A stretch of 40,000 nt of DNA from an uncultured Roseibium sp. (GCF_963675095.2 NZ_CAXXSJ010000060.1:6903-46902), one strand, 5' to 3'. Positions 5,164-21,065 are shown, numbered from the stretch's first letter. Notes: generated from the sequence alone by a model not told the origin. Numbers and translations: made by a program.

Positions 5164-6111
5164 ATGAACATCGAGAACCAGGAATTCAAAACGCTTAAAG
5201 AAGCCCTGAAGGCCAATACCGGCCGTTTTGTCGACAAGCGCTTCGACTGGGAAGCGTTTCCGTCGAACATCGGCTTTCCGGAGCTTTCCCGCGCCCAGAT
5301 GCGCTACATCGGCGCCGGCGGTTCGCCGAAGGTCGGCGACACCTCGACCCTGAAGCCGGATCACTTCACCCTGTCGCTGATCTACAAGGAGCCGGGCAAA
5401 TACGCCGCCTGCCATAGCCACGAGATCGAGGAAAGCTTCCTGATCATCGACGGCAGCCTGATCGTCGGCTGGGAAAAGGACGGCGAAGTGGTCGAAGTCA
5501 ACCTCGGCCCAAAGGACATGATCCTGAACGCCCGCGAAATCGGCCACGGTTTCCGTGTCGACGGCGTCGAGCCGGTCCTGATGTCGATTTCCGTCGACGT
5601 CGGCAAACCGCTTCCGCCGGTCTACCACTACCACCCGAAGGAGCATGCGCCGGAACTGGCCCGCAGCTTCGGAGCACAGCCGGGCAAGACCATGCCGTTC
5701 GACCCGAACGGCTCCCATCCGCTGCAGAAGCTGATGGGAAAATACGTCGCCCGTCACAATGAACTGGAAACGATCTGGGACGATGCCGGCTTCACCCGCA
5801 AGGTCTATTGCGGCCCGGGCGGCGTCGAGACCGATACCTGCCGGAAGGAAATGCTCGGCATTCCGTCGCGGGTCGGCGTCAAGCCGTTCACGCGGGACGT
5901 GGAAGACGCTTTCCTGGTGCTTGAAGGCTCCCTGACCGTCGGTTGGGAAGAGAACGGCGAAACCACCGAAGTCGAACTCGGACCGCGCGACCTGGTTAAG
6001 ACCCCGGCCGGCCGCAAGCACTGGTTCCGCAACAACAGCGCCACGCCTGCAACCGTCTGGTATGTGGTGGGCTCCGCCGAGCCGGAAACGGTCAAGTTCG
6101 AAAAGGCCTGA
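5164..6111 (+). CDS. Bicupin protein, putative metal-dependent ring-cleaving dioxygenase-like enzyme
   Basis: Two cupin barrels. The N-terminal one keeps the metal motif (CHSHEIEESFLIIDG ... GHGFRV). The C-terminal one lacks the HxH (RDVEDAFLVLEG ... KHWFRN). The antisense 330-aa ORF is rejected. Confidence 0.7.
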   Translation: MNIENQEFKTLKEALKANTGRFVDKRFDWEAFPSNIGFPELSRAQMRYIGAGGSPKVGDTSTLKPDHFTLSLIYKEPGKYAACHSHEIEESFLIIDGSLIVGWEKDGEVVEVNLGPKDMILNAREIGHGFRVDGVEPVLMSISVDVGKPLPPVYHYHPKEHAPELARSFGAQPGKTMPFDPNGSHPLQKLMGKYVARHNELETIWDDAGFTRKVYCGPGGVETDTCRKEMLGIPSRVGVKPFTRDVEDAFLVLEGSLTVGWEENGETTEVELGPRDLVKTPAGRKHWFRNNSATPATVWYVVGSAEPETVKFEKA

Positions 6112-6289: not shown

Positions 6290-7432
6290 ATGACCGTATT
6301 GAAGGTTGGGATCTGTGGTGGCGGTGTTGGCGGTCTGTGCGCGGCGATCGCGCTGACCGACATGGGCCACGACGTGACGATATATGAACAGGCTTCCGAA
6401 TTCGGCCGCGTTGGCGCCGATATCAACCTGACCCCCAATGCCGTCCATGCTCTCGACAGGCTCGGCGTCGGCGAGCGCCTGCGCGAAACCGCTGCACGGC
6501 CGACGCACCGGATCAGCCGCCAATGGGACACCGGCGAGGAAACTTCGCGCCTGCCGATGAGCACGGCGGCGGAAGAACGCTACGGCTCGCCGCAGCTGAC
6601 CATCCACCGGGCAGATCTTCTCAACGCCCTGACCGATCGCTTACCGGCCAGCCGTATCCTCTTCGGCTGCAAGGTGAGCGGCGTCGAACAGGACGACACC
6701 AAGGCGACCATTCGGTTCGCCGACGGCAGCCATGCCGACTTCGACGTGGTCATCGGGGCCGACGGCATCCATTCCGTCGTCCGGACCGCGCTGTTCGGCA
6801 AGGACGACCCGAAATTCACCGGCCTGGTGTCCTACCGCGCGGTCTTCCCGCGCTCCAAAGGCGCGGACGTTCCGGATCTCGACGCCTTCACCAAATGGTG
6901 GGGCCCGACCAGCGACTACCAGATCGTCACCTTCCCGCTCACCCGCGGCGAAGAAATCTTCGTCTTCGCGACCACACCGCAGACCGACTGGACCGAGGAA
7001 GGCTGGACCCTGCCCGGCGACATCAACGAGCTGCGCGCGGTCTACAAGGACTTCCATCCGCAGGCCCGCGCCCTGCTCGACGCCTGCGAAACCGTAACCC
7101 GCTCGGCGCTGCATGTGCGCACGCCGATGGAACACTGGTCGAAGGGCAGGATCACCATTCTCGGCGATGCCGCACATCCCATGGTGCCGTTTATGGCCCA
7201 GGGCGCCTGCATGGCGATTGAGGATGCCGTCGTTCTGGCCCGTTCTCTGGACGGCAAGTCCTCCGCAGAGGTGCCCGGCGCGCTCGAAACCTACGAGACT
7301 GCCCGGAAGCCCCGCACCGCCCATGTCCAGGAAAGCTCCCTTGCCAATGAATGGCTGAAAGACCGCGGCAACGCCGACTGGGTCTACGGCTATCATGCCT
7401 GGGAAGTGGGTCTTGACGACCTGGCAGCCTGA
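6290..7432 (+). CDS. FAD-dependent aromatic monooxygenase (salicylate / 3-hydroxybenzoate / 6-hydroxynicotinate hydroxylase-like, group A)
   Basis: GxGxxG (VGICGGGVGGLCAA), GADGIHSVVR, and LGDAAHPMVPFMAQGACMAIEDA. 380 aa; RBS GAGGG upstream. Confidence 0.85.
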   Translation: MTVLKVGICGGGVGGLCAAIALTDMGHDVTIYEQASEFGRVGADINLTPNAVHALDRLGVGERLRETAARPTHRISRQWDTGEETSRLPMSTAAEERYGSPQLTIHRADLLNALTDRLPASRILFGCKVSGVEQDDTKATIRFADGSHADFDVVIGADGIHSVVRTALFGKDDPKFTGLVSYRAVFPRSKGADVPDLDAFTKWWGPTSDYQIVTFPLTRGEEIFVFATTPQTDWTEEGWTLPGDINELRAVYKDFHPQARALLDACETVTRSALHVRTPMEHWSKGRITILGDAAHPMVPFMAQGACMAIEDAVVLARSLDGKSSAEVPGALETYETARKPRTAHVQESSLANEWLKDRGNADWVYGYHAWEVGLDDLAA

Positions 7433-7548: not shown

Positions 7549-8367
7549 ATGGCGATGGCATCCGAAAAGGACGCAGAACAGACGGGCTATTCGGTCCCGC
7601 CGGTTCTGCGGGCAATCGCGCTTCTGCGCTATATCGGAGCCGGCAACCGCTGCCGCAACATCTCCTCGGCCTCCAAGGAACTGGGAATCAACCGCACCAC
7701 ATTAATCCGCCTCATCCATACGCTGGAAGACGAGCGCATGATCGAGGAGATCGACGAAGGCGCCGGCTACCGTCTCGGAACCGGGCTGATCGCGCTCGCC
7801 TCCGAGGCCATCGCGGACCGGGACGTTGTCCAGATCGCCCGGCCGATCCTTGCCGACCTGGCGGCCGAACTCAATCTGTCGGCGCACCTTGGCATTCTCG
7901 ACGGGCTTGAGATCGTCTACCTGGCCCGGGAAACGCCAAATTCCTACCTGGTCAGCAACGTGCGCGTCGGCACCCGTCTGCCGGCGCATGCGACCACCAT
8001 CGGACGCATTCTTCTGTCTGAACTCGCGCCCGAGGCGCTGCACAAGCTTTATGACCACGTGAAGCTCGATGCCTATACGGACAAGACCAGAACCTCCCTG
8101 GAGGAACTGGAAGCACAGCTTGCCGAAGACCGGAAAGGCCGGATTGCCTGGAGCGTCGCCAATTTCGAGCCGGGGATCGGCTCCTGCGCAGTCGCCGTTT
8201 ACGACGATCGCGGCCGGGCGGTCGGCGGCATCAACGTGACCGGGCAGGACAGCGTGTTCACGCCGGGCACGGACGAGGCGAATGTGATCGAACGCGCCAT
8301 CAAGTCCGCGGCGAACCGGATATCCGAGGGGCTCGGGCACACGTCGCGAAGCATGCGCAGAGCCTAA
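7549..8367 (+). CDS. IclR family transcriptional regulator
   Basis: 272 aa. wHTH (ISSASKELGINRTTLIRLIHTL) followed by an IclR effector domain. RBS AGGGAG. Confidence 0.9.
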   Translation: MAMASEKDAEQTGYSVPPVLRAIALLRYIGAGNRCRNISSASKELGINRTTLIRLIHTLEDERMIEEIDEGAGYRLGTGLIALASEAIADRDVVQIARPILADLAAELNLSAHLGILDGLEIVYLARETPNSYLVSNVRVGTRLPAHATTIGRILLSELAPEALHKLYDHVKLDAYTDKTRTSLEELEAQLAEDRKGRIAWSVANFEPGIGSCAVAVYDDRGRAVGGINVTGQDSVFTPGTDEANVIERAIKSAANRISEGLGHTSRSMRRA

Positions 8368-8379
8368 CTCTCGGAAAAA

Positions 8380-8979
8380 TCAGTCGTAGGTGTAGCCGAA
8401 GGACAGGCCGAACCGGTCCGCGGTCAACGGCCGATTGCCGGTCAGCGCCCGGCGCAGCCACAGGCGGCCGTGGATCTGGGTGTCGGTGAAATCGGCGTTG
8501 TCCGGAAGCCGGACACCATCGCACCAGAGCCCGCCCAGCCACTCTGCGCCGGAGAAATCCGCCTGCTTGCGTAAGCTCGCGCCTTCCAGCGAAAAGTTGC
8601 CATAGGCAACCACGCCTGAGAAATCCGCGTCGTCTTCGAAAACGGCGCCGTTGAAATTACCGATCCCGCGGAACTCGCATCCGGCAAAGGAAACCTTGCG
8701 GGAGAAGGTCACCTCTTCGAAGCGCGCGTCGTTGCGGAACGACGCGCCGGCGAAGGAAACCTCCCCGCCGAAGACCGATCCGCCGAACCAGGACAGGCCC
8801 TGGAACACCGCATCACGTGCGTCGATGCCGTCGGGAAACCGTGCGTTCCGGAAATCGACGCCTGCCAGTTCAAGACCGGCAAGGTCGAGCTCGCCCTCAC
8901 ACTCGATTCCCGAAAGATCGATGCGTTCACCATGATGCCACGGCGTCGATAGTTTTTCGCGGATTTCCCGGGCCAGCAT
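8380..8979 (-). CDS. Pentapeptide repeat protein
   Basis: About 30 consecutive A(D/N)LxX-type pentads (e.g. ADFSGVVAYGNFSLEGASLRKQADFSGAEW). Its start shares 1 nt with the flavodoxin stop (TGATG at 8977-8981). Confidence 0.85.
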   Translation of the reverse strand: MLAREIREKLSTPWHHGERIDLSGIECEGELDLAGLELAGVDFRNARFPDGIDARDAVFQGLSWFGGSVFGGEVSFAGASFRNDARFEEVTFSRKVSFAGCEFRGIGNFNGAVFEDDADFSGVVAYGNFSLEGASLRKQADFSGAEWLGGLWCDGVRLPDNADFTDTQIHGRLWLRRALTGNRPLTADRFGLSFGYTYD

Positions 8980-9446
8980 CAGGCTGCCTCTGAAGCCTGT
9001 TTTTCAGCGAGCGCAACCATTTCCTCTGCCCAGGGCAGAGCCAGATCGTCGGCCATGTCACTACCGGACGCGTCATGGGTCAGCCGATCGCCGAGTTGGG
9101 TCGCTCCGTGTTTGGCGAGCAGGTCGGCGATGTGCTTGCTGCCGTGGTTGAAGGTCTCGTCATATTCGGAATCGCCGAGACCGAAGACGGAGAAGGAGAC
9201 ACCGGAGAGATCCGCACTGGACTGCGCCATGGCTTCCGCGAAAGGCTTCGCCGAGGCCGGCAGTTCGCCGTCTCCATAGGTGGAGCAGACGACCAGGTAG
9301 AACCCGCCCGCCTCGAAGTCGTCCGGAGCGAAATCGGACAGGTTGACAGCTTCGGCCTCGTGGTCGCTTTCCAGGCCGGAGACGATGTCCTCAGCCAGCA
9401 TCTCGGCATTTCCGGTTTCGGTGCCGTAGAGAACAGTGATCTTCAT
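8979..9446 (-). CDS. Flavodoxin (short-chain, FMN-binding)
   Basis: MKITVLYGTETGNAE phosphate-binding loop and STYGDGELP motif. 155 aa; ATGA overlap with the upstream reductase gene. Confidence 0.85.
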   Translation of the reverse strand: MKITVLYGTETGNAEMLAEDIVSGLESDHEAEAVNLSDFAPDDFEAGGFYLVVCSTYGDGELPASAKPFAEAMAQSSADLSGVSFSVFGLGDSEYDETFNHGSKHIADLLAKHGATQLGDRLTHDASGSDMADDLALPWAEEMVALAEKQASEAA

Positions 9447-10699
9447 CCGTTGATCTCCTCAGATTTTTGCAGGGCCAGAGCCAGCATGTCCTGCCGGCAG
9501 GCGATCTTGCGGCGGGTTCTGTCCGCCGGCAGGTCGGCCGTTTCGGCCTCATCGATCCGCTTCCAGCCGGCGTAATCGACCAGATCTGTGCGTTCCGCCA
9601 TCAGGCTATCTCGCCCGCCTTTTCCGGCATCTGCGCCGGCGGCGTCAAGATCCGCCAATATACGGGTGGCAAGCGCCTGCGCGTCCGCACGGTTTTCCGG
9701 AATGGTCCCACGCGGGCCGCGCCGGAACCAGCCGGTCGCGTAGAGACCCGGAGCGAGCGCGCCGGCCGCCAAATCGTCTGCCGATGCAGCCAGTTCGTCC
9801 CGCCCCAGAGGGCCGGCTGCGGCAAACCCGACGGCGGTGATGAAGCTGTCGCAGGCGATCTCGGCCACATCACCACTTGCACTTTGGAACCGGACACCGG
9901 TCACCTTGCCGTCTTCGCCTGTGATTTCCGCCGGTGTCAAACCGAAGCGGAAGGTGAGCTGGCGCGGACCGGCTCCATGGCCGTCAACCGCAGCCAATGC
10001 GTCCAGCTTTTTCTGACCCTCGTCACTCTGGGCAGTCCCCATGTCCTCGACGCGGATTGTCACGCCGGAAAGCTTGGAGAGTTCCTTGATCATTTCCGGA
10101 TCGAATTTCGCGGCTTCGGCCGCCGAGCGTCCGACGAGATCGATGGTCTCGATGTCGTTGCCGGCAAGCCAGGCGCTCGGACCGGCACCGAAATCGGATC
10201 CCGCAAGTTCGTCAGGCGTCTTGCCCAGGATACGCAACAGGTCGATGGCGACATTGCCGTTGCCCATGATGACGACCTTCTTGCCGAGCGTGGGCAAGGG
10301 GTCGGCGTCTGGGTGTTCGTAAAGCGCACGAGTCAAGTCGCCAGCGCGGATCACGCCTTCTAGATCCTCGCCCGGTATGCCGAGCGACCGGTCGCCGGGA
10401 AGGCCGGCCGCCAGAACGACCACATCGTAACAGGCACGTAGGTCATCCAGGGACACATCTTCGCCGACGGTCAAGTTGCCGATGAAAGTGGCACCCATGC
10501 GCTCGAATACCCGCTCGAACTGGCGCGTGATCCCCTTGGTGCCCTGGTGATCGGCAGCAACGCCATAGCGCACCAGACCATAAGGCACCGGCAGGCGGTC
10601 GATCAGGTCGACCTTGAGCTCCGGATTGGCCTTGAGCAAAGCCTGCGCCAGGAAGCACCCGGACGGACCGGCCCCGATAATGGCGACGGATGCACTCAT
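9443..10699 (-). CDS. FAD-dependent NAD(P)H:ferredoxin/flavodoxin oxidoreductase, adrenodoxin-reductase/FprA type
   Basis: Two dinucleotide folds (AIIGAGPSGCFLAQAL and VVIMGNGNVAIDLLRIL) plus PVPYGLVRYGVAADH, typical of the AdR/FprA family. 418 aa. Confidence 0.75.
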   Translation of the reverse strand: MSASVAIIGAGPSGCFLAQALLKANPELKVDLIDRLPVPYGLVRYGVAADHQGTKGITRQFERVFERMGATFIGNLTVGEDVSLDDLRACYDVVVLAAGLPGDRSLGIPGEDLEGVIRAGDLTRALYEHPDADPLPTLGKKVVIMGNGNVAIDLLRILGKTPDELAGSDFGAGPSAWLAGNDIETIDLVGRSAAEAAKFDPEMIKELSKLSGVTIRVEDMGTAQSDEGQKKLDALAAVDGHGAGPRQLTFRFGLTPAEITGEDGKVTGVRFQSASGDVAEIACDSFITAVGFAAAGPLGRDELAASADDLAAGALAPGLYATGWFRRGPRGTIPENRADAQALATRILADLDAAGADAGKGGRDSLMAERTDLVDYAGWKRIDEAETADLPADRTRRKIACRQDMLALALQKSEEING

Positions 10700-12192
10700 G
10701 CGGCTCCCTCCATGGCAGGCAGAGCCCAGGGATGCGGCTTGCCGGAGAGGTCGGTGTAGATCGACTTCTGCGCCATATAGGCGCGCATGCCTTCCCTGCC
10801 CTTCTCGCGTCCGATGCCGCTATCCTTCTCGCCGCCGAACGGGGTCGAGATGGAGAACTGTTTATAGGTGTTGACCCAGACCGTGCCGGTGCTGATGGCC
10901 CGTCCGACACGCCAGGCTTTCGGGAAGTCCTTGGTCCAGAGACCGAGGGCAAGACCGTAGCTGTTGTCGTTGGACTGGGCGATGACGTCCTCTTCGCTGT
11001 CGAAGGGCAGCACGGCCAGAACCGGTCCGAACACCTCTTCACGGCACATACGCGCCGTATTCGGCAGGCCGGCGATGATCGTCGGCAGATAGTAAGCGCC
11101 CTTGGCGTAATCCGCACCTTCCGGCATCCTGCCGCCACAGAGGATCTCACCCCCGTCGGCGCGGGCGGCTTCCACATGTTCGGCCACACTCTCGCGGTGA
11201 TCGAAGTGGATCAGCGGCGCCACCTGGGTATCCGCCTCGAACGGATTTCCGACCTTGAGCCGCTTGGTGACTTCCACCAGACGGGACACGAACTGATCGT
11301 AGATCGGCCGCTCGACGAACAGGCGCGCACCGGCGATGCAGCTCTGACCGGTGGAGGAGAAGATGCCGAACAGAACACCGGCAATCGCCTGGTCGATGTC
11401 GGCATCGGCAAAGACGATGGTCGGCGACTTGCCGCCCAGTTCGAGCGACACGGGCATCAGCTTTTCCGCCGCCTGACGGGCAAGCTGGCGGCCGGTGGTG
11501 GTGCCGCCGGTGAAGCTGACCCGGGCGATATCCGGGTGATCGACCAGCAGATTGCCGATCTCGCGGCCCGCCCCCGGCAGCACGGAGAACAATCCCTTCG
11601 GCAGGCCGGCCGCTTCCACAATCCGCGCCAGCTCCAGGCTGACCAACGGCGACCAGGACGCCGGCTTGAGCAGGACCGCGTTGCCTGCGGCAAGGGCGGG
11701 CGCCACCTTCTGGGCATCCGATGCAATCGGCGAATTCCAGGGAGTGATCGCACCGACCAGCCCGAGCGGTTCATAGACCGACAGGGTCATGGCATCGCCG
11801 CGCTGAACGGTCAGCGCCTCGTCGGAGGTTTCCAGCACCGCGCCGAAATAGCGGAAGGTTCCCGCCGCCGACATCGCAAGCGCCTTGGTTTCCTTCAAGG
11901 TCTTGCCGGTGTCCCGGGTCTGGATAAAGGAAATCCGGTCCGCATTCGCTTCGATGCCGTCGGCGATGGCATAGAGGTATTTCGCCCGCTCATGAGCTTT
12001 CAGATTGCGCCAGGCCGGATCGGCCTGGGCAGCGCGGGCGCGCTCGATGGCGCGCAGACCGTCGGCCTGCGACGCGCCGCGCAACACGCGGTTGACCGAA
12101 CCGTCGGCGGGAAAGATGGAGGTGATTTCCGGGCCCGTGCCCTCTTCCCACGCGCCGCCGACGAAAAGTTTGCCTTCAGGAAGGTCGATCAT
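10696..12192 (-). CDS. NAD(P)+-dependent aldehyde dehydrogenase
   Basis: ELGGKSP and the catalytic Cys motif GQSCIAGARL. I chose the ATG at 12192 (MIDLPEGKLFVGG) because GAGGAG lies 6 nt upstream; the ORF-track start at 12213 is a TTG. Confidence 0.9.
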   Translation of the reverse strand: MIDLPEGKLFVGGAWEEGTGPEITSIFPADGSVNRVLRGASQADGLRAIERARAAQADPAWRNLKAHERAKYLYAIADGIEANADRISFIQTRDTGKTLKETKALAMSAAGTFRYFGAVLETSDEALTVQRGDAMTLSVYEPLGLVGAITPWNSPIASDAQKVAPALAAGNAVLLKPASWSPLVSLELARIVEAAGLPKGLFSVLPGAGREIGNLLVDHPDIARVSFTGGTTTGRQLARQAAEKLMPVSLELGGKSPTIVFADADIDQAIAGVLFGIFSSTGQSCIAGARLFVERPIYDQFVSRLVEVTKRLKVGNPFEADTQVAPLIHFDHRESVAEHVEAARADGGEILCGGRMPEGADYAKGAYYLPTIIAGLPNTARMCREEVFGPVLAVLPFDSEEDVIAQSNDNSYGLALGLWTKDFPKAWRVGRAISTGTVWVNTYKQFSISTPFGGEKDSGIGREKGREGMRAYMAQKSIYTDLSGKPHPWALPAMEGAA

Positions 12193-12202
12193 CCGGATCT
12201 CC

Positions 12203-13027
12203 TCAAATCGCAACTGGAGCGACGCGGTTTCGCAACTCCCGCAGAACGCTGTACACCGTGGTCACGGACGTCTTGATGTTGCCCGGCGACGGCAGGTTCT
12301 CAATGCGGATCGACGTGCGTGCGACGCCGGAAACCGCGGTGAATTCATGAGTGTTGCCGGACGCAGCCGGATCGGCGATCAGCTCGACCTTCGTATCGTC
12401 GAAGCCGAGGCCGGCGAGCGCAATCGTTGCCGCCACATTGGCGTTCTTCGGATACTGCGCGGCCGCATCACGGGCCGTGCCGGAGAAGAACACCGTGGCT
12501 TCCGTGAGCCCATCGAGATCGACCGCGGATTCCGCAGGCGTTCCGGCCCAGGCCGCAGGTGGCTTGCAGCCATGGTAGGTGACCGACGTCAGTCCCGCCG
12601 GGCGCAGGGCGGCCAGCAGATCGATCCCGCCGACCGCTCCGGCCGGCAGCACGATCCGCGCACCGCCTTCTTCGGCTGCCGCGCGAAGCTCGGCTTCCAG
12701 GTCCCGGTGCGCAAAAGCGCCGATCGACACGAGCACCACATCGACGCCCGCCTTCAGGATTGTCGGCACATGGCTGACGACGGCCTGATGACCGGCACAT
12801 TCAATGACAAAGTCGGGCTTGGCCGCCAGAAGCTCTTCGGCGCTGGAGACAGCGACAAAGCTGCAGCCCAGACCGCCATGGTTGGCTTCAAGGTCCTTGC
12901 CCAATTCGTCCGTTTTCTCCGGCAGTCCGAGCACCGTGAGCGCTTCCAGCTTGATTTCCGGGGTCTCCGCAATCAGCCGCAGCAGCGTTCCGGCGATATT
13001 GCCGTATCCGATCAATCCGAGGCGCAT
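12203..13027 (-). CDS. Aspartate dehydrogenase (NadX)-like domain oxidoreductase
   Basis: MRLGLIGYGNIAG Rossmann start, then AGAVGGIDLL, YPKNANVAATIALAG and GNTHEF...NLPSPGNIKTS, matching the NadX/DUF108 family pattern. Confidence 0.8.
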   Translation of the reverse strand: MRLGLIGYGNIAGTLLRLIAETPEIKLEALTVLGLPEKTDELGKDLEANHGGLGCSFVAVSSAEELLAAKPDFVIECAGHQAVVSHVPTILKAGVDVVLVSIGAFAHRDLEAELRAAAEEGGARIVLPAGAVGGIDLLAALRPAGLTSVTYHGCKPPAAWAGTPAESAVDLDGLTEATVFFSGTARDAAAQYPKNANVAATIALAGLGFDDTKVELIADPAASGNTHEFTAVSGVARTSIRIENLPSPGNIKTSVTTVYSVLRELRNRVAPVAI

Positions 13028-13030
13028 GGA

Positions 13031-14704
13031 TCAGGTCCTGTTTCCCGCAGCTCCGGCGGGCGGGCCGGAAAAGGCCTGGGCGAAGGGACCGATGGCGCAC
13101 ATGTCGACCTCGATCACCTTGGGCCCTTCGACGGAAACGGCTTCCTCGAAGGCTTCCGCGAATTCGTCCACCGAGCCGATAGCCCGATGGGGCATGCCGA
13201 TCGAAGCACAGAAGGTGGCGAAATCCGGCGTCGCCAGAGCGGAATAATGCCGGCGGGAGTCATACTGCGCATCCTGGATGTTCTGGATGACGCCATAGGC
13301 CTTGTCGTTCATCAGCACGTAGACCAGCCCGGCCTTTTCCTCGACCGCGGTGATCATCTCGGAGATGCCGAGCATCGTGCCGCCGTCCCCGAGCAGGGTG
13401 ACCGCCTTTGCTTCCGGCGAGGCAATAGCCGCACCGATGCCCATGGCCACACCCTGGCCGATACCGCCGCCGAGGGCGTGGACGCCGTGACGGGGCTCGG
13501 AAATGCGGACATAACGGTTGCCGAAGGTGGAATTGGAAATGGTGACGTCACGCACCCAGGGATGCTTGCCCTCAGAAACCCGCACGGCGAGTTCGTCCGC
13601 AATCACCCGGTAAGGGCCGAGCACATCGCGCATCCGGCCTTCGGCTGTCGCGCGTGCCGTCGCGATATCGAACGCCTGGTTCGGATCGACATCGAGTTTT
13701 TCCGGCAGCAGCTCGAGGATCCGGCCGAGCGTGTCCGCGGCATCGCCATGGGCGAAGATCTCGACCGGATAGTTGCGGCCGCCCTGGGTGGCGTCCGCGT
13801 CGATCTGGATCAGCGGCGACGGCAGAACCATCGCGTTGTTGTGGGTCTCGTTGCCGCGAAGACGCGAACCGACGACGATCATCAGGTCGGACTTGCGGTA
13901 AAGCTCCTGGGCCTCCGGCGTCATGTTGAAGGCACCGAGGTTGCCCGGCTGCTCTTCGGAGACGATGGCGCGGCCGTTGGTGCTGGTAACGATGCCGATG
14001 CCGCGGCGATGAAGTTCGCTTGCCTCCTTGGAGGCGCCGCGGGCGCCACCGCCGAGCCACAGCAGCGGACGCTTGGCCGTTTTGATCCGGCCGGCGATCT
14101 CTTCGATAACCGCATCAGGCGCACGCGGCGTCATCGGTACCGGCGCATGGATGGCTCCGGTCTCGCAGGCCTGGGTGCGCTGGACGTCGACCGGGATTTC
14201 CAGGCTGACCGGGCCCGTCGGCGCGCTCAGGGCGGAGGAGACGGCGGCGGTCAGGGTGCCGACCGCATTGCGCGCATCCCACATGCGGAAATAGGCCTTG
14301 GAGACACCTTTGAGCATGTCCGGCTGACGCGGCACGTCGTGAATGGCGGCGCGGTCCCGGTCGGCGAATTCGACATCGACCTGCGTGGTGATGTGCAGGA
14401 CCCGCGATCCAGCGGTCAGGGCTTCGGCCTGGGCTCCGGCGGCGTTACCGGCGGCTGTACCGGTCGAAGTGATGACCACGCCGAGGCTCTGGGAGACGCG
14501 GGCATAGGCATCGGCCATATTCATAGCGCCTGCCTCGCCACGCGCCGGCACGAAGCGGATCCGCTCCTGGCGGGCGATCGCGTCTAGGATCGGCATGTTG
14601 TGGATCGAGATGACGCCGAACACGGTTGTGACGCCGATCTCGGCGAGGTAGCGGGCGATGAAGTCACCGACCGTCTCAGTGATCGTGATCTTTTCCATTT
14701 TCAT
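13031..14704 (-). CDS. Thiamine diphosphate-dependent enzyme (acetolactate synthase / 2-oxoacid decarboxylase superfamily)
   Basis: Three-domain ThDP architecture with the ThDP motif GDGGTMLG...VYVLMNDKAYG. I start it at MKMEKITI (14704), which has GAGGGA 6 nt upstream; the 31-aa extension to 14797 overlaps the SDR gene and is Pro/Arg-rich. Confidence 0.85.
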   Translation of the reverse strand: MKMEKITITETVGDFIARYLAEIGVTTVFGVISIHNMPILDAIARQERIRFVPARGEAGAMNMADAYARVSQSLGVVITSTGTAAGNAAGAQAEALTAGSRVLHITTQVDVEFADRDRAAIHDVPRQPDMLKGVSKAYFRMWDARNAVGTLTAAVSSALSAPTGPVSLEIPVDVQRTQACETGAIHAPVPMTPRAPDAVIEEIAGRIKTAKRPLLWLGGGARGASKEASELHRRGIGIVTSTNGRAIVSEEQPGNLGAFNMTPEAQELYRKSDLMIVVGSRLRGNETHNNAMVLPSPLIQIDADATQGGRNYPVEIFAHGDAADTLGRILELLPEKLDVDPNQAFDIATARATAEGRMRDVLGPYRVIADELAVRVSEGKHPWVRDVTISNSTFGNRYVRISEPRHGVHALGGGIGQGVAMGIGAAIASPEAKAVTLLGDGGTMLGISEMITAVEEKAGLVYVLMNDKAYGVIQNIQDAQYDSRRHYSALATPDFATFCASIGMPHRAIGSVDEFAEAFEEAVSVEGPKVIEVDMCAIGPFAQAFSGPPAGAAGNRT

Positions 14705-14714
14705 TTTTGTTCCC

Positions 14715-15503
14715 TCAAATATGCCGGGAGACGCCGCCCGAGACCTCGATCTGTGCGCCGGTGATGTAGCTGGCGGCGGGCGAGCCCAGGAAGGCAATCG
14801 CCGCAGCGGCCTCCTCCGGCTGCCCCAGCCGTCCTAGCGGGATACGTTTTTTCGAAGCGAGATCGGCGTACCAGTCTTCGCGGCACTGGCTCTTGTCCTC
14901 GCGGGCTTCGAACCGGCGCTGCCACTGGCCGGAATCGACCAGACCGATCAGGATGGAATTGACCCTTACCTTCGGCGCCAGTTCCACGCTCAGCGACTTG
15001 GCCAGGTTCTGCACGCCTGCCCGGGCGGACGACGTGCACACCATATGCGCTTCCGGCTGGTAGGCGAGCAGCGAGTTGACCACGACGATGGAGCCGTTCG
15101 CTTCCGCCAGCATCGCCTTGAAGGCGCGCACCGGACGGACCTGGCTGAACACCTTCAGCTCGTATTCGGCACGCCAGTCGTCATCGGTCGTCTCGGCGAA
15201 GGTCGATACCCGGCCCTGACCAGCGTTGTTGACCAGCAGATCGCACCGGCCGAACCGGTCCTGAACATCGACGGCGAAGGCCTGGACATCGGCCTCGTCG
15301 AGCACGTTCAGCGCCTTGGCGAACACCCGGCCTTCACCGAATTCGGCGGTCAGGTCCGAGGCTACCTTCTGCAGCCGCTCTTCATTGCGGGCGCAGATGG
15401 CCACGTTCGCACCGCTTGCCAGAAGCAGGCGCGTCGTCGCCAGTCCGATGCCTGAAGATCCGCCGGTCACCACCGCGACCCGGCCGTCGTAGCCGTAATG
15501 CAT
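14715..15503 (-). CDS. SDR-family oxidoreductase, atypical (no YxxxK at the expected position)
   Basis: TGGSSGIGLA cofactor motif and NNAG. At the position where YxxxK is expected, 13 residues after the Ser of VNS, it reads T-S-S-A-R. Confidence 0.8.
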   Translation of the reverse strand: MHYGYDGRVAVVTGGSSGIGLATTRLLLASGANVAICARNEERLQKVASDLTAEFGEGRVFAKALNVLDEADVQAFAVDVQDRFGRCDLLVNNAGQGRVSTFAETTDDDWRAEYELKVFSQVRPVRAFKAMLAEANGSIVVVNSLLAYQPEAHMVCTSSARAGVQNLAKSLSVELAPKVRVNSILIGLVDSGQWQRRFEAREDKSQCREDWYADLASKKRIPLGRLGQPEEAAAAIAFLGSPAASYITGAQIEVSGGVSRHI

Positions 15504-16417
15504 CAGTTCTTCCTCAGTTCCGGGAAGCCGGGATCGGGACGGCCCTGCATCACTGCGCGCTGCGCCGGGGTCGGAGGACCTGCGGTCATCCAGCGGTCCA
15601 TGGCTTCCGGATCGTTGCGCGACCAGACCTTGGCCTCATGGGTCGCCTCGTCGATCTGCTGCAGTTCGGAGGTGAACTCGATCACGAAACCGGACGGAGA
15701 GACGAAATAAGCGAAGGGGTTGTTGCCCGGTCCGTGCCGGCCAGGACCCCAGGTCGGGACGTGACCCTTCTGCTTCATCCGGCCAATGCCGCGCATGAAC
15801 TCGTCAAGCGTCGGCATCTCGAAGGCCACGTGATTGACGCTCGGATAAAAGGCGCGCACCAGGGCGATCGAATGGTGATCGGTATTGCAGCGGAGAAAGA
15901 CCATTTGGTCGGCGGAATAGTCGGACACCCGGAAGCCGAGTACCTTACAATACCAGTCCTGAAGACCTTCCATGTTCGGCGTATTGAGCACGACATGGCT
16001 CACCTTGCGCGGCATCGCCCAATCGTCCTTCGGCTCCAGTTCCTTGGCCTCTGTGCGGAAGCGCAGGCGGCGGTTGTCCGGATCCAGGATCTCGAAGCCA
16101 TAGCCACCGCAGAAATCGGGGAACGGTGCCGGATCGCCGAGGACGGCAGCCCCCGCCGCCGTCACCTGGGCATGCAAGGCGTCCATCGAGGCCCGGTCGG
16201 GCATGGAAAAGTGGACATATTCGATGCCGTAGACCGGCGCATCCTTGAGGCCGTAGAGAAACGGCTCGGTGCCCGTACCGCGCAGGAGAACCTCGTCGTT
16301 CCCCTTGTGCGACAGGTCGAGGCCCCACATGTCTTCGTAGAACGGCAGCGTCTCGGTGATACCGGGACCGCGCATCATGATGCCGCGCAGGGCGCCGACG
16401 CGTATCGGATCAGACAT
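15503..16417 (-). CDS. Type I extradiol ring-cleavage dioxygenase (VOC superfamily, catechol 2,3-dioxygenase / BphC-like)
   Basis: Two-domain VOC protein of 304 aa with His/His/Glu candidates (VSHVVLNT, NHVAFEM, VIEFTSE). 1-nt overlap with the downstream SDR gene. Confidence 0.8.
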   Translation of the reverse strand: MSDPIRVGALRGIMMRGPGITETLPFYEDMWGLDLSHKGNDEVLLRGTGTEPFLYGLKDAPVYGIEYVHFSMPDRASMDALHAQVTAAGAAVLGDPAPFPDFCGGYGFEILDPDNRRLRFRTEAKELEPKDDWAMPRKVSHVVLNTPNMEGLQDWYCKVLGFRVSDYSADQMVFLRCNTDHHSIALVRAFYPSVNHVAFEMPTLDEFMRGIGRMKQKGHVPTWGPGRHGPGNNPFAYFVSPSGFVIEFTSELQQIDEATHEAKVWSRNDPEAMDRWMTAGPPTPAQRAVMQGRPDPGFPELRKN

Positions 16418-16441
16418 TTTCCAATCTCCTGTTCCGGCCCG

Positions 16442-17257
16442 TCACTGTGCGGGCGAAGTCATTGAAGCCAGCGCCGCGGCAAAAGCCCGGGGCGCCTGCT
16501 GATAAAGGGCGTGTCCCGCCGACGGCACTTCCGTGAACGTGCCGCGCACGGCCGAAGGTATGGCGGCATAGGTCTTGCGGGCGGCTTCCGGTGGCGTCAC
16601 CACGTCTTCCGAGCCCACGATCACATCGGTCGGCACGGTCAGCCGGGCGGCATCGTCGAGCAGACGGCCGGACGCCAGCATGCGCACCGCCATGTCGTAG
16701 CCGGGGCTGGAGACCCGGGACATCGCGTCGTAAACACGGGCGACCAGATCCGGATTGGCCTCCGGCTCGAACACCAGCCGAGCCGCACGGGCTTCGGCGA
16801 ATTTTTCAGCACCAAGGGCTGCCAGGTCATCCAACCGCTTCTGGGCCGCGGCACTCAACGCAGAACCCGGCGTCACCCCATGGCCAAGCGCGGTGGACGC
16901 CAGCAACAGATGCGCCACGCGGTCCGGATGCGCGGTCGCAAACGCCGCGGCGATTAGGGTACCCAGCGAATGGCCGACGAGCAGCACCCGCTCCAGTCCG
17001 AGACGATCCAGAAACCCTTTCAAGGCTTCGGCATAATCGGCGGCCTGAGGCCAATCCTTTGCCAGAGGCTCTGATCCGCCATAGCCCGGCGCGTTCCAGA
17101 CGATCACCCGGAAGGACGGGGCGATCTGATCGAGAAACGGTGCGAAGGACATCGCATTGCTGCCGATGCCGTGGAGCAGCACCAGAACCGGGCCATCGCC
17201 CTGTCCCGGACGTTCCAGGTATTCGATACCGCCGGAAATGTGGGTCTGGACAGTCAT
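16442..17257 (-). CDS. Alpha/beta hydrolase, meta-cleavage product (C-C bond) hydrolase-like
   Basis: HGIGSN oxyanion region, nucleophile elbow GHSLGT, C-terminal His (SAGHALYQ). 271 aa. Confidence 0.75.
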   Translation of the reverse strand: MTVQTHISGGIEYLERPGQGDGPVLVLLHGIGSNAMSFAPFLDQIAPSFRVIVWNAPGYGGSEPLAKDWPQAADYAEALKGFLDRLGLERVLLVGHSLGTLIAAAFATAHPDRVAHLLLASTALGHGVTPGSALSAAAQKRLDDLAALGAEKFAEARAARLVFEPEANPDLVARVYDAMSRVSSPGYDMAVRMLASGRLLDDAARLTVPTDVIVGSEDVVTPPEAARKTYAAIPSAVRGTFTEVPSAGHALYQQAPRAFAAALASMTSPAQ

Positions 17258-17264
17258 CGGCGGC

Positions 17265-18008
17265 TCACTTGAAAACGAAACCGTTGTTGACCGGCATCAC
17301 CTGGCCGGTCAGGGTCAGGGCGCCCTCGCTGACGAGGAAGGCGATCACGTCGGTGATCTCGGAAGCCGCCTGGGGACCGGGAACCGCCCTGCCCTCGGCA
17401 TAGAGCCGATGCCGGGCTTCCGGCACATAGTCAGTCGATTCCGTGGTCAGGATGCCCGGTGCGACGGCGGTGACGCCGATCCGCTCCGGACCGAGTTCGC
17501 GTGCCAGCGAACGGGTCATGGACATGACCGCGCCTTTGCTTGCCACGTAGGACAACAACCGGGGGGCCCCCCAGAGCGCGGTGTCCGATGCCACATTGAC
17601 GATGCGGCCCGAGCCGGACGCCGCCAGCATCGGCCGGCAGGCACGGGTCATCAGCCAGGTGCCGCGCACGTTGACGCGCATGACCCGGTCCCAGCTGTCG
17701 ATCTCGATCTCGTCGAAGGGAATGCCACCGATGCCGGTCGCGATCGCGCCGTTATTGACCAGACCATGGAGCTTGCCGCCCGTCTCAGACGCGATGGCCT
17801 CGCCAAGTGCCTGAATGGAGTCCGGTTCGCCGAGATCGACCGGGAAAAAGCGAACCGCCTCGCCAAGTTCGTTCGCCACGGCACGGCCTTCCTCCTCGGC
17901 GATATCCGCCAGGATCAGCCGCGCGCCATGGCCGGCGAGACACCGGGCGATTTCACGCCCGAGGCCACGCGCCGCACCGGTGACGAGTATGGTCCGCTCT
18001 TTCAGCAT
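17265..18008 (-). CDS. SDR-family dehydrogenase (classical; candidate cis-dihydrodiol dehydrogenase)
   Basis: TGAARGLG, NNGA and YVASK catalytic motifs. 1-nt overlap with the Rieske gene upstream. Confidence 0.8.
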   Translation of the reverse strand: MLKERTILVTGAARGLGREIARCLAGHGARLILADIAEEEGRAVANELGEAVRFFPVDLGEPDSIQALGEAIASETGGKLHGLVNNGAIATGIGGIPFDEIEIDSWDRVMRVNVRGTWLMTRACRPMLAASGSGRIVNVASDTALWGAPRLLSYVASKGAVMSMTRSLARELGPERIGVTAVAPGILTTESTDYVPEARHRLYAEGRAVPGPQAASEITDVIAFLVSEGALTLTGQVMPVNNGFVFK

Positions 18009-19051
18009 TATTCGGCCGCCTCACTGGCGGTCAGTTCGGCCTCGATCTGGCTCTTGGCCGCACGGGTCAGCATCTGGCGGATACGGGAAACGCCGAGGTC
18101 GTGCTGATAGAGCATCTCGCGCTTGCGGGCGTCATCCGGCATGCCTTCCAGCATGACCCGGTCCTGTTCGAGCACGTGCCAGTGGTTTGCCTCGAGCTTT
18201 GCGCGATAGAGGAAGCGCCAGCTTTCGCGCGCCAATCCGCTGACCTTGCGCAGACGCCAGAAGAACACCTTGCAGGTGGTGGCATCGATCGGCGCAACGA
18301 AGCCGACAATGCGCATGTTGCCGCCCGGCCCGGCGGCCTTCGGATAGGGAATATCCAGGAAGCAGAACATGGTGCCCGGATGAACCTCGAACTCGCTCCA
18401 GTCGAAGTTCTCGCCGGACTGCTCGACCCGGCTGACGCGGAAGCCGTCATCGGTCTTGTCGAGCTTCATCAGGTCCTGCTTGGCGCCATAAGCGAGCGTG
18501 AAGCTTTCCGAATGCAGGTAGCAGCCGTGCATGGGATCGGCGAGGTTGTCGAGGGCGTAGCGGTAGTTGGTGCCCCAGACGGAGGTACACAGGAAACCGG
18601 TCCACTCGTCGCTGGTGAACTCATGCGGCAGGGCCAGTTCCGGCGGCTCCGGCTGCTCGACGCTCGGCATGTAGACGAAGACAGCGTCGTGGGTTTCGGT
18701 GGTGTGGAAGGAATTCAGCGCCTTGCGGCCTTCGAGGGCGCATTCCGGCATGGCTGGCACCCGCTTGACCACGCCTTCCCCGTCGACGATGACGCCGTGG
18801 TAGCGGCAGCCGATATCGCCGTCATGGATCTCGCCGTAGGAAAGCGGCGCGCCACGGTGCGGGCAGAAATCCTCGATGCACTGGATCTTGCCTTCCTTGT
18901 CGCGCCACAAGACCAGTTTCTGGCCGAGCAGCTTGGCGCCGTAAGGCCGGGAATCCTTGACTTCAACGGATTTGGCGACCGGGTACCACTGTCCCAGGAG
19001 CCCCTGGTTGACGCGTTCCTCGATCAGCGCTTTCTTATCGATATCGGCCAT
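18008..19051 (-). CDS. Rieske [2Fe-2S] non-haem iron oxygenase, alpha-subunit-only type (VanA/PobA/phthalate-family-like)
   Basis: Rieske motif CPHRGAPLSYGEIHDGDIGCRYHG and mononuclear iron motif DNLADPMHGCYLH. I start it at MADIDKK (19051), which has AAGGAG upstream; the 12-aa extension to 19087 is rejected. Confidence 0.85.
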   Translation of the reverse strand: MADIDKKALIEERVNQGLLGQWYPVAKSVEVKDSRPYGAKLLGQKLVLWRDKEGKIQCIEDFCPHRGAPLSYGEIHDGDIGCRYHGVIVDGEGVVKRVPAMPECALEGRKALNSFHTTETHDAVFVYMPSVEQPEPPELALPHEFTSDEWTGFLCTSVWGTNYRYALDNLADPMHGCYLHSESFTLAYGAKQDLMKLDKTDDGFRVSRVEQSGENFDWSEFEVHPGTMFCFLDIPYPKAAGPGGNMRIVGFVAPIDATTCKVFFWRLRKVSGLARESWRFLYRAKLEANHWHVLEQDRVMLEGMPDDARKREMLYQHDLGVSRIRQMLTRAAKSQIEAELTASEAAE

Positions 19052-19212
19052 GTCTCTCCACTCCTTAGTCCAAGACCGGCGGTCCAAGTTCCCGCCCCGG
19101 CTCTCACCTGTGCTTCGGTGTCTTTTTCTCGCAGTTGTCCCTGCCCGGCCGGTGTTGCCGGGGTGGTCAGTTCTGCATGTCCCTCTGGCCGGATCGGCCG
19201 TTGCCGGTCCGT

Positions 19213-20061
19213 TTAGCTCTGCGCTTTCGGCAGGTAATGGAGCACGCGCTCCTCGACCCGCGCGATCGCGGTGTAAAGAATGATCCCGATGACCGTGAGC
19301 AGCACGATGGCGTTGAACACCATGGCCGCATTCGCCTGGCCGCCGCCGTAGGAAATCAGGAAGCCGAGCCCGACGTTGCCGCCGACCAGTTCACCGACGG
19401 TGACACCAATCACGGCGAGGGTCGACGCAATGCGCAGACCGGCAAGCAGGTTCGGCATGGTGGACGGCATCTCCACCTTGAAGAAGACGCCCAGGCGGGA
19501 CAGGTTGTAAGCGCGCGCCAGATTGACCAGGTCGCGGTCGACCGTCTTCATCGCCTGCAGCACGTTGACCAGCACCGGAAAGAACACGATCAGGACGGTC
19601 ACCAGCAGCTTGGGCATGGCGTTGTAGCCGAACCACATGATGAACAGCGGCGCGAAGGCCACCTTGGGCGCGATCTGCAGCGCCAGGATATAAGGCGACA
19701 GCACCTTCTCCCAGAAGCTCGACATGCCCAGAACGTAGCCGATCACCGCGCCGAGCAGGCTGCCCAGGGCGAACCCCAGCACAGTGTAGACCGCGGTGGA
19801 GATCGTGTTGCCGAGCAGGTTTTCCTGCTGCCACATGCGGACCATTTCCACCGCGCAGTCGGACACGGTCGGAATGATATACTTCGGCACGCCGAGCGCG
19901 GGCGGCAGGAACTCCCAGCACAGGAGCAACACGGCCAGGACCGCAAGGCTCATAAACAGGGTGCTTTTCGACGAAGTCATCGGTTTCTTCCGTCTCTTCT
20001 GGTCCTCACGGGTCGCGGCGGCAGGCGCCGCGACCCCTATTGAAGGACTAGCGTCCGTCAT
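19213..20061 (-). CDS. ABC transporter permease, NitT/TauT family
   Basis: Homologous in pattern to the 1504-2277 permease. ATGA overlap with the SBP stop at 20058-20061. An alternative start at 19980 (MTSSKS) is possible. Confidence 0.8.
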   Translation of the reverse strand: MTDASPSIGVAAPAAATREDQKRRKKPMTSSKSTLFMSLAVLAVLLLCWEFLPPALGVPKYIIPTVSDCAVEMVRMWQQENLLGNTISTAVYTVLGFALGSLLGAVIGYVLGMSSFWEKVLSPYILALQIAPKVAFAPLFIMWFGYNAMPKLLVTVLIVFFPVLVNVLQAMKTVDRDLVNLARAYNLSRLGVFFKVEMPSTMPNLLAGLRIASTLAVIGVTVGELVGGNVGLGFLISYGGGQANAAMVFNAIVLLTVIGIILYTAIARVEERVLHYLPKAQS

Positions 20062-21032
20062 TGCGGGACGAATTCGTTGGTATAGAGATCTTCCACCGGA
20101 ACGGCCGTCTTGACGATACCGTTGTCGATATAGAACTTCTGCACCTTGGCCATACGCTCCGGATCGAAGGCGCCGAGCGGCTGACCTTCGCCGGCCGGGT
20201 AGACCTTCTCCACATAGGCGCGCATCACGGCTTCGATCGCCTTTTCCTTGCCGGTGTGCTGCGGCACGAAGGAGACGTATTCTTTCGCAGCCGTGGCCGG
20301 ATCGGCCTGGATGTCCTTGAGGGCGCGGATCACGCCGGCAACGATGCCTTTCACGACTTCCGGACGCTCGGCAATGGTCTTGTCGGAGGCCAGGATCGCC
20401 TGGGCCATGGCCGGGAACATGGTGTCCACGGGAACCTGTTCCATCGGAACGCCAGCAGCTTCAATGGCCGCAATCCACTCAGGAACACCGGACATGCCCT
20501 GCAGAGTGCCGGCAATGGTGAGCTGGATGATGCCGCCCGGGCCGACGCCCTGAATGTTGACGTCATTCTTGCCCAGGCCGACGGAGGCCATGGCGCCGAG
20601 CAGGTTGTAGTAGGTCGTGTCCTGGAAGCCGAGCACGCCGATGGCCTTGCCCTTGAAGTCAGCCGGTCCGGTGATGCCGGAATCCTTGCGCCAGGCAAGC
20701 TGGGTCAGACCACGGCCGCCCAGGAGGGCTACGCCGCGAATGTCCAGGCCGTTGGCGCGCACGATGATCGGCGTGTCGCCGATACCGCCGCCGAGGTCGG
20801 CGTTACCGACGGCAACCTGAGTGGCGACATCCGCGCCGCCCTTGCCGACCATGAAGGTGACATCCAGACCCGCATCGGCGAAATAGCCCTTGTGCTTGGC
20901 AAGCTGGAACGGGGCGAAGGCCGGCAGAAAGTCCGGTGCCGGGAAAAGGTAGCTCACCTTTTCGGCCGCCTGAGCGGCACCTGCGGAAACCGCCATCACG
21001 GCGGCCATCATGCTAATTGCGAAACGCTTCAT
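20058..21032 (-). CDS. ABC transporter periplasmic substrate-binding protein (NMT1/THI5-like), Sec signal
   Basis: Signal peptide MKRFAISMMAAVMAVSAGAAQA. Size and context are as expected for a NitT/TauT SBP. Confidence 0.8.
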   Translation of the reverse strand: MKRFAISMMAAVMAVSAGAAQAAEKVSYLFPAPDFLPAFAPFQLAKHKGYFADAGLDVTFMVGKGGADVATQVAVGNADLGGGIGDTPIIVRANGLDIRGVALLGGRGLTQLAWRKDSGITGPADFKGKAIGVLGFQDTTYYNLLGAMASVGLGKNDVNIQGVGPGGIIQLTIAGTLQGMSGVPEWIAAIEAAGVPMEQVPVDTMFPAMAQAILASDKTIAERPEVVKGIVAGVIRALKDIQADPATAAKEYVSFVPQHTGKEKAIEAVMRAYVEKVYPAGEGQPLGAFDPERMAKVQKFYIDNGIVKTAVPVEDLYTNEFVPQ

Positions 21033-21065
21033 TACAGAGATCCCCTGCTGGATTTCAAAAATGAT

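Follow-up and report, generated by a model that had tools for sequence, protein, structure and literature searches.

Flavodoxin and FprA-type reductase as probable iron-sulfur-free electron partners of an alpha-only Rieske oxygenase in a Roseibium catabolic operon

In the stretch of Roseibium sp. DNA analyzed in this work (40 kb, hereafter the window, whose positions serve as coordinates), two neighboring genes of the (-) strand encode a reductase of the FprA/adrenodoxin reductase (AdR) type (9443-10699) and a flavodoxin (8979-9446), and both belong to an operon that also carries the gene of an alpha-only Rieske non-haem-iron oxygenase (18008-19087, (-) strand). Judging from the predicted gene products and their linkage, we consider it probable that this pair is a dedicated electron chain, devoid of iron-sulfur (Fe-S) clusters, for the oxygenase of the operon. 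The original prediction had already named the pair as non-classical redox partners of the oxygenase, and this is the best-supported explanation in the light of the operon linkage, the maintenance of the pair through gene rearrangements, a second context with a LigXa-type Rieske oxygenase, and the need of the oxygenase for electrons.

In the proposed chain, electrons would pass from NAD(P)H to the FAD of the reductase, then to the FMN of the flavodoxin, further to the Rieske [2Fe-2S] cluster of the oxygenase, and finally to its mononuclear iron. The flavodoxin-to-Rieske transfer is suggested by the gene linkage, and the flavodoxin would presumably cycle between its semiquinone and hydroquinone forms, as cindoxin does. 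The chain is proposed to lead to the oxygenase because this is the only recognized enzyme class of the operon that needs external single electrons. Since a flavodoxin hydroquinone is a far stronger reductant than the Rieske clusters of oxygenases (about -150 mV) require, this step is thermodynamically plausible. The putative electron acceptor contains the Rieske (PF00355, 2.8e-23) and VanA_C (PF19112, 5.8e-14) domains, the Rieske motif CPHRG...CRYHG, and the mononuclear-iron motif DPMHGCYLH, although its start codon is uncertain (TTG at 19087 or later). KshA, SxtT, and CarAa are its distant PDB relatives, and by domain content and motifs it is assigned to the VanA/KshA/CarAa-like alpha-only group. 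A comparison of the net charge and pI of the Rieske domains, made in search of a basic docking surface, showed no difference between flavodoxin-linked and unlinked oxygenases.

To our knowledge, Rieske oxygenases have been classed by their electron partners for three decades, each class having at least one iron-sulfur partner. Batie classes IA-III comprise systems with a PDR/VanB/TsaB/KshB-type FNR-[2Fe-2S] reductase (PDR, phthalate dioxygenase reductase), or with a GR-type reductase and a [2Fe-2S] or Rieske ferredoxin (DdmA/DdmB). The operon was said in the original prediction to lack a ferredoxin, a Rieske beta subunit, and a PDR-type gene, and gene tiling, the scan for Cys motifs, and Pfam domain matches all agree with that. 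The (-) strand genes between 8380 and 21836 tile nearly gap-free, so there is no space for a further gene, such as one for a Rieske beta subunit or another reductase. In all frames of the window, no Cys motif of a [2Fe-2S], [3Fe-4S], or [4Fe-4S] ferredoxin was found except the Rieske motif of the oxygenase itself, and no gene for a Rieske beta subunit or a PDR/VanB-type reductase was found within the window either. The nearest Fer2 matches on the contig fall outside of it (C60:1322-1483 and C60:48750-48908), and the whole contig gave no match to NAD_binding_1 (FNR/PDR-type). The proposed partners encoded by the operon thus belong to none of Batie classes I, II, and III.

The reductase (418 aa) is a predicted FAD flavoprotein, cindoxin-reductase-like, which we propose to act as the NAD(P)H:flavodoxin reductase for the oxygenase. 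Its Pfam match is Pyr_redox_2, and the closest solved structures are Mycobacterium tuberculosis FprA (1lqt, E 1.2e-48, query residues 5-410 against chain residues 6-455) and bovine adrenodoxin reductase (1cjc, E 9.6e-42), with both the FAD and the NADP domain covered; matches to the remaining solved relatives are limited to the N-terminal FAD domain, common to GltD-type proteins. The likeness to FprA and AdR extends along the full length and includes both dinucleotide-binding motifs, which stand in the contexts IIGAGPSGCF (GxGxxG, FAD) and IMGNGNVAIDLLR (the second, GxGxxA-type motif). The N-terminal GAGPSG and the second motif, GNGNVAID, are unchanged in 12 orthologues. The window reductase differs from FprA and AdR in being about 40 residues shorter, in its flavodoxin partner (versus a [2Fe-2S] or 7Fe ferredoxin), and at residues 190-193, which read GRS(A/P) versus GRRG. 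The Arg-Arg pair of the latter motif binds the 2'-phosphate of NADPH; because the clade of the window reductase has GRS for GRR, the coenzyme may be either NADH or NADPH. GRS is common to the Rieske-linked and P450-linked reductase clades, and the unlinked, mainly acidobacterial, clade alone has retained GRR; possibly, GRS is a derived character that the oxygenase-serving reductases have in common, and it may influence the NADH/NADPH choice. In its genome the window reductase is the sole FprA-type gene. Its relatives in the databases number in the thousands, the best 120 of them showing 59-91% identity and coming from Roseibium, Nitratireductor, Maritimibacter, Leisingera, Ruegeria, Mameliella, Phaeobacter, and others; one homologue bears the NCBI name "Cindoxin reductase".

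The flavodoxin (155 aa) is predicted to be a short-chain, cindoxin-like FMN protein, proposed as the one-electron shuttle to the Rieske cluster. Flavodoxin_1 (PF00258) covers it fully (1-143 of 143, 6.8e-30), and the insert of about 20 residues typical of the long-chain kind is missing. The best solved relative is cindoxin (4oxx, E 1.8e-25, 38% identity), followed by MioC (5e-17). The AlphaFold2 (AF2) model (pLDDT 93.3, pTM 0.89) has five strands and five helices arranged in the five-stranded parallel alpha/beta fold, and a Foldseek search with this model placed 4oxx first (TM 0.83, rmsd 1.9 A), the structural matches being short-chain flavodoxins of 145-153 aa. The loops GTETGNAE, STYGDGELP, and FGLGDSEY align with GTETGNAE, ATYGEGEFA, and FGLGDSYY of cindoxin, and the FMN-binding parts (GTETGNAE, STYGDGELP, and FGLGD, i.e., the phosphate loop and the two loops flanking the isoalloxazine ring) are kept across 13 orthologues. 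The protein is very acidic (pI 4.05), and it is the only strong flavodoxin genome-wide. Both open reading frames, of the lengths and types described in the original prediction, are thus present, and profile and structure-prediction assignments bear out a Pyr_redox_2 reductase and a cindoxin-like flavodoxin. The two genes are joined by an ATGA overlap ("...AAC GGA TGA AG"), and a second one ("...GCC GCA TGA GT") lies at the junction with the preceding aldehyde dehydrogenase (ALDH) gene, to which the reductase gene is translationally coupled; the flavodoxin gene and the following pentapeptide-repeat gene overlap by TGATG.

Species-representative genomes were scanned for the reductase, which gave 80 loci whose 10-kb flanks were annotated by profile search, some of the absences resting on draft genomes. 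The loci fall into four groups. In the first one, alphaproteobacterial reductases (47-68% identity) occur with the Rieske/extradiol operon. The second (51-53% identity; L015, L020, and L023) has the pair divergent from a different Rieske oxygenase. The third gathers actinobacterial and Pseudomonas loci (37-45% identity), in which the pair adjoins a P450 gene (21 loci) or is fused to a P450 (9 loci), and in the fourth, mainly acidobacterial, the flavodoxin gene is unlinked or distant and neither oxygenase type is present. The full operon with the pair was found in Nitratireductor, Mesorhizobium, Maritimibacter, Mameliella, Roseitalea, Pararhodobacter, Rhodoplanes, and one further genome (G735), and, in one gene order or another, the operon occurs in many Rhodobacterales. 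In three contexts from public assemblies, the same operon extends from the importer through the pentapeptide gene and is accompanied by a divergent IclR gene, a P450 being absent. Across many genomes the reductase and flavodoxin genes are kept at 50-91% identity, which speaks against a chance finding.

The catabolic core of the operon (12203-18008) has an identical gene order in L004, L005, L008-L016, L022, L024, and L094. In two loci (L007 and L025; Phaeobacter sp. J2-8 and a Sedimentitalea metagenome-assembled genome) the Rieske gene is relocated and the order is reductase, flavodoxin, a helix-turn-helix (HTH) gene, Rieske oxygenase, and pentapeptide. Another order, Rieske-(pentapeptide)-ABC...ALDH-SDR-reductase-flavodoxin-IclR (SDR, short-chain dehydrogenase/reductase), occurs in L097-L099 (genomes G419, G589, and G621), L018, and L021, the pentapeptide gene being seen at this place only for G419, G589, and G621. 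L018 and L021 were considered as pair-bearing operons without a Rieske gene, and this was rejected, as the Rieske gene lies just beyond the 10-kb flank. Through at least three gene orders and in two bacterial orders, the pair has thus remained with the oxygenase operon, and in every complete locus of its clade it is in the same operon as the oxygenase. This clade is mostly marine, but Rhodoplanes is included.

The most telling comparative evidence is a second genomic context. In L100 (G693, of the same genus as the window), L108 (G983), L020, L023, and L015, a sister pair (52-57% identical to the window pair in L100 and L108) stands in divergent orientation to a split LigXa-type Rieske oxygenase, which consists of two genes separated by a real stop codon and a ribosome-binding site: a Rieske-domain protein of 150-180 aa and then a LigXa_C catalytic protein of 410-425 aa (L100:11018-12856, L020:8055-9806, L023:8091-9760, and L108:8010-9721). 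Near the sister pair, no match to an extradiol dioxygenase, a thiamine diphosphate (ThDP) enzyme, or an ALDH at orthologous level was found in L020, L023, L100, and L108 (L015 is a contig of 3.8 kb). Besides IclR-type regulators, the Rieske oxygenase is the only gene class that the two contexts have in common, and as the only common catalytic class it counts against the pair serving an extradiol dioxygenase, a ThDP enzyme, or an ALDH. Such a service to another enzyme of the operon, either the reactivation of the extradiol dioxygenase iron in the manner of XylT or the withdrawal of electrons from the ThDP enzyme or ALDH, has points in its favor, since XylT-type ferredoxins do reactivate extradiol dioxygenases, and overlaps connect the genes of the ALDH, the reductase, and the flavodoxin, all three of which are absent together from genome G609. 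However, G609 keeps the extradiol dioxygenase and the ThDP enzyme without the pair, and six further loci (L102-L107) keep the ALDH, the ThDP enzyme, and the extradiol dioxygenase without it. We regard this explanation as very unlikely. In L100 and L023 there is also a glutamine-synthetase-like gene near the split oxygenase, a hint that the substrate could be a gamma-glutamylated amine.

The gene neighborhoods also bear on the alternative offered in the original prediction, namely that the pair serves the P450 of the window (28022-29383). In a wider form, the pair would be the redox system of this or of other partner-less P450s, its placement in the Rieske operon being incidental. Cindoxin, the closest solved relative of the flavodoxin, is the partner of P450cin, the genome contains nine P450 matches, several of them without a neighboring ferredoxin, and the P450-linked or P450-fused reductases of the third group share the GRS motif with the Rieske-linked clade. 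However, the P450 at 28022-29383, which is the nearest one in the window, is 17 kb from the pair, no P450 gene was found within 10 kb of the pair in any locus of the clade of the window, and the pair is coupled translationally to the catabolic operon. Moreover, in the reductase tree (like the oxygenase tree, an unrooted quick search; CinB was not among the reductases compared) the P450-linked proteins form one clade of their own (31 entries, SH-aLRT 96). The window belongs to a clade of 16 entries, which comprises 11 operon loci, three LigXa-type loci, L013 (an operon locus on a short contig, with the Rieske orthologue on another contig), and L019 (a 13-kb contig on which no Rieske gene was seen); the operon-linked entries from Pararhodobacter, Rhodoplanes, L018, and L021 sit outside of it. 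We consider it unlikely that the pair is primarily a P450 system, and its assignment to the P450 of the window is disfavored, while the part of the earlier alternative that stands is the kinship: with cindoxin as the closest relative and a sister clade linked or fused to P450s, the module belongs, by its sequence, to one broad family together with the P450-serving reductase/flavodoxin pairs. The pair may occasionally moonlight for a P450. No orthologue of the window P450 was found at E<=1e-80 in 60 genomes of the same family.

As regards the P450-linked relatives themselves, the nine P450-reductase-flavodoxin fusions are single proteins of about 1010-1060 aa, confirmed by Pfam, that form one clade (SH-aLRT 100). 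They were found at L041:8684-11722, L067:8681-11722, and L084:2682-5870, and also in L047, L058, L060, L066, L068, and L071, the hosts being Actinobacteria (Microbacterium, Leucobacter, Kineococcus, Brevibacterium, Enemella, and Pseudoglutamicibacter). Their domain order suggests a self-sufficient type of P450 that differs in architecture from CYP102 and CYP116B. The P450 of L027 was considered as P450cin-like and rejected, since it is closest to the 3p3l/3p3o P450, and there is no true cin operon among the loci.

Co-occurrence was assessed in 301 evenly drawn Rhodobacterales genomes, with an orthologue cut-off of E<=1e-90. The reductase orthologue is present in 9 of these genomes, the Rieske orthologue in 16, and both together in 8, in seven of which they lie on one contig, 8.5-12 kb apart. 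The single genome with the reductase and without the Rieske orthologue (G983) has a LigXa-type oxygenase next door, whereas eight genomes have the Rieske orthologue without the reductase orthologue, one of them (G1098) carrying a more divergent pair inside the operon. The Fisher test for this co-occurrence gave p = 7e-11, a value that is overstated as the genomes are kin. Counted over loci, 20 of 27 with an oxygenase orthologue also contain the pair. The co-occurrence proposed as a check in the original prediction thus exists, but it goes one way only: the linkage is asymmetric, the pair being always found with a Rieske oxygenase and the oxygenase not always with the pair.

These counts also bear on the view that the pair is a housekeeping flavodoxin/reductase (of the Fpr/FldA or FprA kind, acting in radical-SAM or methionine-synthase activation or in oxidative stress) which is found in the operon by chance. 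Unlinked FprA-type reductases with 35-45% identity occur in about 23% of the sampled alphaproteobacterial genomes, and unlinked MioC-like flavodoxins in G001, G073, and G271. Still, the orthologous reductases form a rare, accessory clade, found in a single one of 60 other same-family genomes and in the 9 of 301 Rhodobacterales; this clade always stands beside a Rieske oxygenase and has GRS where the housekeeping-like clade has GRR, and we hold a housekeeping role for highly improbable.

Several observations weigh against the proposed role of the pair as dedicated partner of the Rieske oxygenase. In the sampled Rhodobacterales, 7 of the 16 genomes with the oxygenase orthologue are without the pair, and oxygenase orthologues at 64-74% identity occur in clusters that do not contain it. 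The genus to which G082 and G609 belong has an operon that terminates with the aspartate-dehydrogenase-like (AspDH-like) and pentapeptide genes, the ALDH, reductase, and flavodoxin genes all missing, and no FprA-type reductase or cindoxin-like flavodoxin was found in either genome, G609 having one weak (45-bit) Flavodoxin_1 match; the operon of G082 is split over short contigs (L089 and L093), and the absence of the pair was settled by the better-assembled congener G609. Six Rhodobacterales (L102-L107) carry a pair-less variant cluster consisting of bicupin-Rieske-SDR-pentapeptide, an FAD monooxygenase, IclR, and ALDH-AspDH-ThDP-SDR-extradiol-hydrolase, with the bicupin immediately upstream of the Rieske gene; by sequence features only, a TRAP transporter replaces the ABC importer and a sulfatase-like gene is added. 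In the oxygenase tree the pair-less orthologues are nested among the pair-linked ones, which implies at least two to three losses. The paralogous oxygenases of sister operons (45-51% identity) are all unlinked to the pair: the operons of L088, L091, and L092 (G073, G309, and G001) have the SDR, ThDP enzyme, AspDH-like protein, and ALDH in common and no linked reductase, and two genes downstream of the G271 paralogue lies the gene of a probable VanB-like reductase (judged only from its size, its N-terminal sequence, and its number of Cys residues). The Rieske-linked entries of the reductase tree do not form one clean clade (five changes, with a weakly supported backbone). The genome of the window (12 Rieske matches in total) contains several Fer2-FNR fusion reductases (with Fer2 and NAD_binding_1), some of which are not adjacent to any Rieske gene and could cross-serve the oxygenase. 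Furthermore, Escherichia coli flavodoxin and flavodoxin reductase failed in vitro with a Rieske oxygenase, chlorophyllide a oxygenase (CAO) (PMC9615114). A comparison of the net charge and pI of the Rieske domains, made in search of a basic docking surface, showed no difference between flavodoxin-linked and unlinked oxygenases.

The occurrence of pair-less orthologous oxygenases means that the pair is replaceable, not indispensable, and that the oxygenase can be served otherwise. Alpha-only Rieske oxygenases are promiscuous toward reductases, and the replaceability of the partner fits this promiscuity as well as the presence of unlinked Fer2-FNR reductases in the genome. The module is therefore an accessory partner, which can be lost or replaced. 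A stronger form of this objection sees the pair as a passenger, redundant or in decay, with the oxygenase driven by an unlinked Fer2-FNR-type reductase, and both the loss of the pair in at least two to three lineages and the candidate reductases of the genome speak for it. On the other hand, both open reading frames are intact and conserved, with invariant cofactor motifs, and they were kept across the rearrangements and in two bacterial orders, unlike what would be expected of a passenger in decay; we find this explanation quite unlikely.

The distribution of the operon is that of a mobile accessory operon. The reductase orthologue is absent from 59 of the 60 other genomes of the same family, and in 12 other genomes of the same genus it is either absent or present in the other, LigXa-type context; the Rieske orthologue was not found in any of the five other same-genus genomes searched. 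At the same time, the operon proteins are 60-83% identical between Rhizobiales and Rhodobacterales. This patchiness within the genus and family, combined with such identity across orders, suggests horizontal spread.

Among known systems, the Rhodococcus AdR-like reductase XplB feeds a flavodoxin domain fused to the P450 in XplA; it differs from the window pair by its P450 acceptor with a fused flavodoxin, and the fusions found in this work have the order P450-reductase-flavodoxin. Stachydrine demethylase Stc2 with the flavoproteins Stc3/Stc4 and PrnD with the flavin reductase PrnF are examples of flavoprotein partners outside the Batie scheme, although these are OYE-like or flavin-reductase proteins, in contrast to the AdR-type reductase and free flavodoxin considered here (the Stc system is mentioned in PMC11759058). 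With classical Rieske chains the proposed one would have in common NAD(P)H, a flavin, a one-electron carrier, and the Rieske cluster of an oxygenase of predicted alpha3 type, but its partners are free of Fe-S clusters, with a reductase of AdR/FprA type instead of FNR or GR type and a flavodoxin instead of a ferredoxin. The closest parallel is P450cin of Citrobacter braakii, in which electrons pass from NADPH to cindoxin reductase (CinB, an AdR-like FAD protein), then to cindoxin (CinC, with FMN), and to the P450 (PMC9687028). The same two protein types are encoded by adjacent genes in the window, and the flavodoxin resembles cindoxin in both sequence and fold, whereas the acceptor of the P450cin chain is a haem P450 and the window pair is linked to a Rieske non-haem-iron oxygenase and to no P450. 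The separation of the P450-linked reductases from that of the window was obtained in a tree without CinB.

A 2025 review of Rieske oxygenases names no natural flavodoxin partner (PMC12445004), and our literature search found no flavodoxin-dependent Rieske oxygenase, no combination of cindoxin with a Rieske protein, and no report on this operon; most subscription journals were outside its coverage, so a prior report is possible. What is probably new here, according to the predicted gene products, is a three-component Rieske system with two partners of the P450cin type, as a variant on the known three-component scheme. With somewhat less assurance, we incline to the broader view that this is an unclassified natural Rieske system, in which an Fe-S-free AdR/FprA reductase and a cindoxin-like flavodoxin serve at least two oxygenase lineages (VanA_C alpha-only and split LigXa) in mainly marine Alphaproteobacteria. 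If correct, it would add to the Batie/Kweon scheme a new class with a chain of flavoproteins only, and it would mean that redox modules are passed between P450 systems and Rieske oxygenases. The in vitro use of orphan alpha-only Rieske oxygenases is often held up by a missing or unknown reductase, and a compact, oxygen-robust, Fe-S-free partner pair would be useful for Rieske biocatalysis. An iron-sparing role of the pair is a matter of speculation; the oxygenase still requires three iron atoms per subunit.

The remaining genes of the operon, all on the (-) strand, begin with a NitT/TauT-type importer (19213-21836) that consists, by Pfam, of an ABC ATPase (21066-21836), an NMT1-type binding protein (20058-21032), and an ABC permease (19213-20061); in related loci, too, importer genes precede the Rieske gene. 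Downstream of the oxygenase gene, Pfam/NCBIfam matches identify an SDR (17265-18008), an alpha/beta hydrolase (16442-17257), a two-domain extradiol dioxygenase (15503-16417), a second SDR (14715-15503), and the AspDH-like protein (12203-13027), together with a ThDP enzyme (13031-14797, NCBIfam PRK07064) and the ALDH (10696-12213, Aldedh 5e-158). The operon is an uncharacterized aromatic-catabolic pathway, widespread in marine bacteria of the Roseobacter group and in Rhizobiales, and the whole family of ThDP/AspDH-type aromatic pathways appears uncharacterized; NCBIfam matches of the operon proteins were only generic or below cut-off and gave no pathway substrate.

The last gene of the operon encodes a pentapeptide-repeat protein (8380-8979, (-) strand, Pentapeptide_3 7e-37). 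In rearranged operons (L007, L025, L097-L099, and L102-L107) it follows the Rieske gene and not the flavodoxin gene, and it is kept in pair-less clusters, e.g., L095. As it moves with the Rieske gene and persists without the pair, its role would be tied to the oxygenase or the pathway, not to the flavodoxin.

On the (+) strand, Pfam matches identified a bicupin (5164-6111), a group-A FAD monooxygenase (6290-7432), and an IclR regulator (7549-8367), which probably belong to the same pathway as the operon, outside the redox module. The orthologous clusters of L101-L107 contain, or have beside them, genes for strong homologues of both the bicupin (475-535 bits) and the FAD monooxygenase (559-578 bits), and the IclR gene is divergent and adjoins the end of the operon in L004, L005, and other loci.

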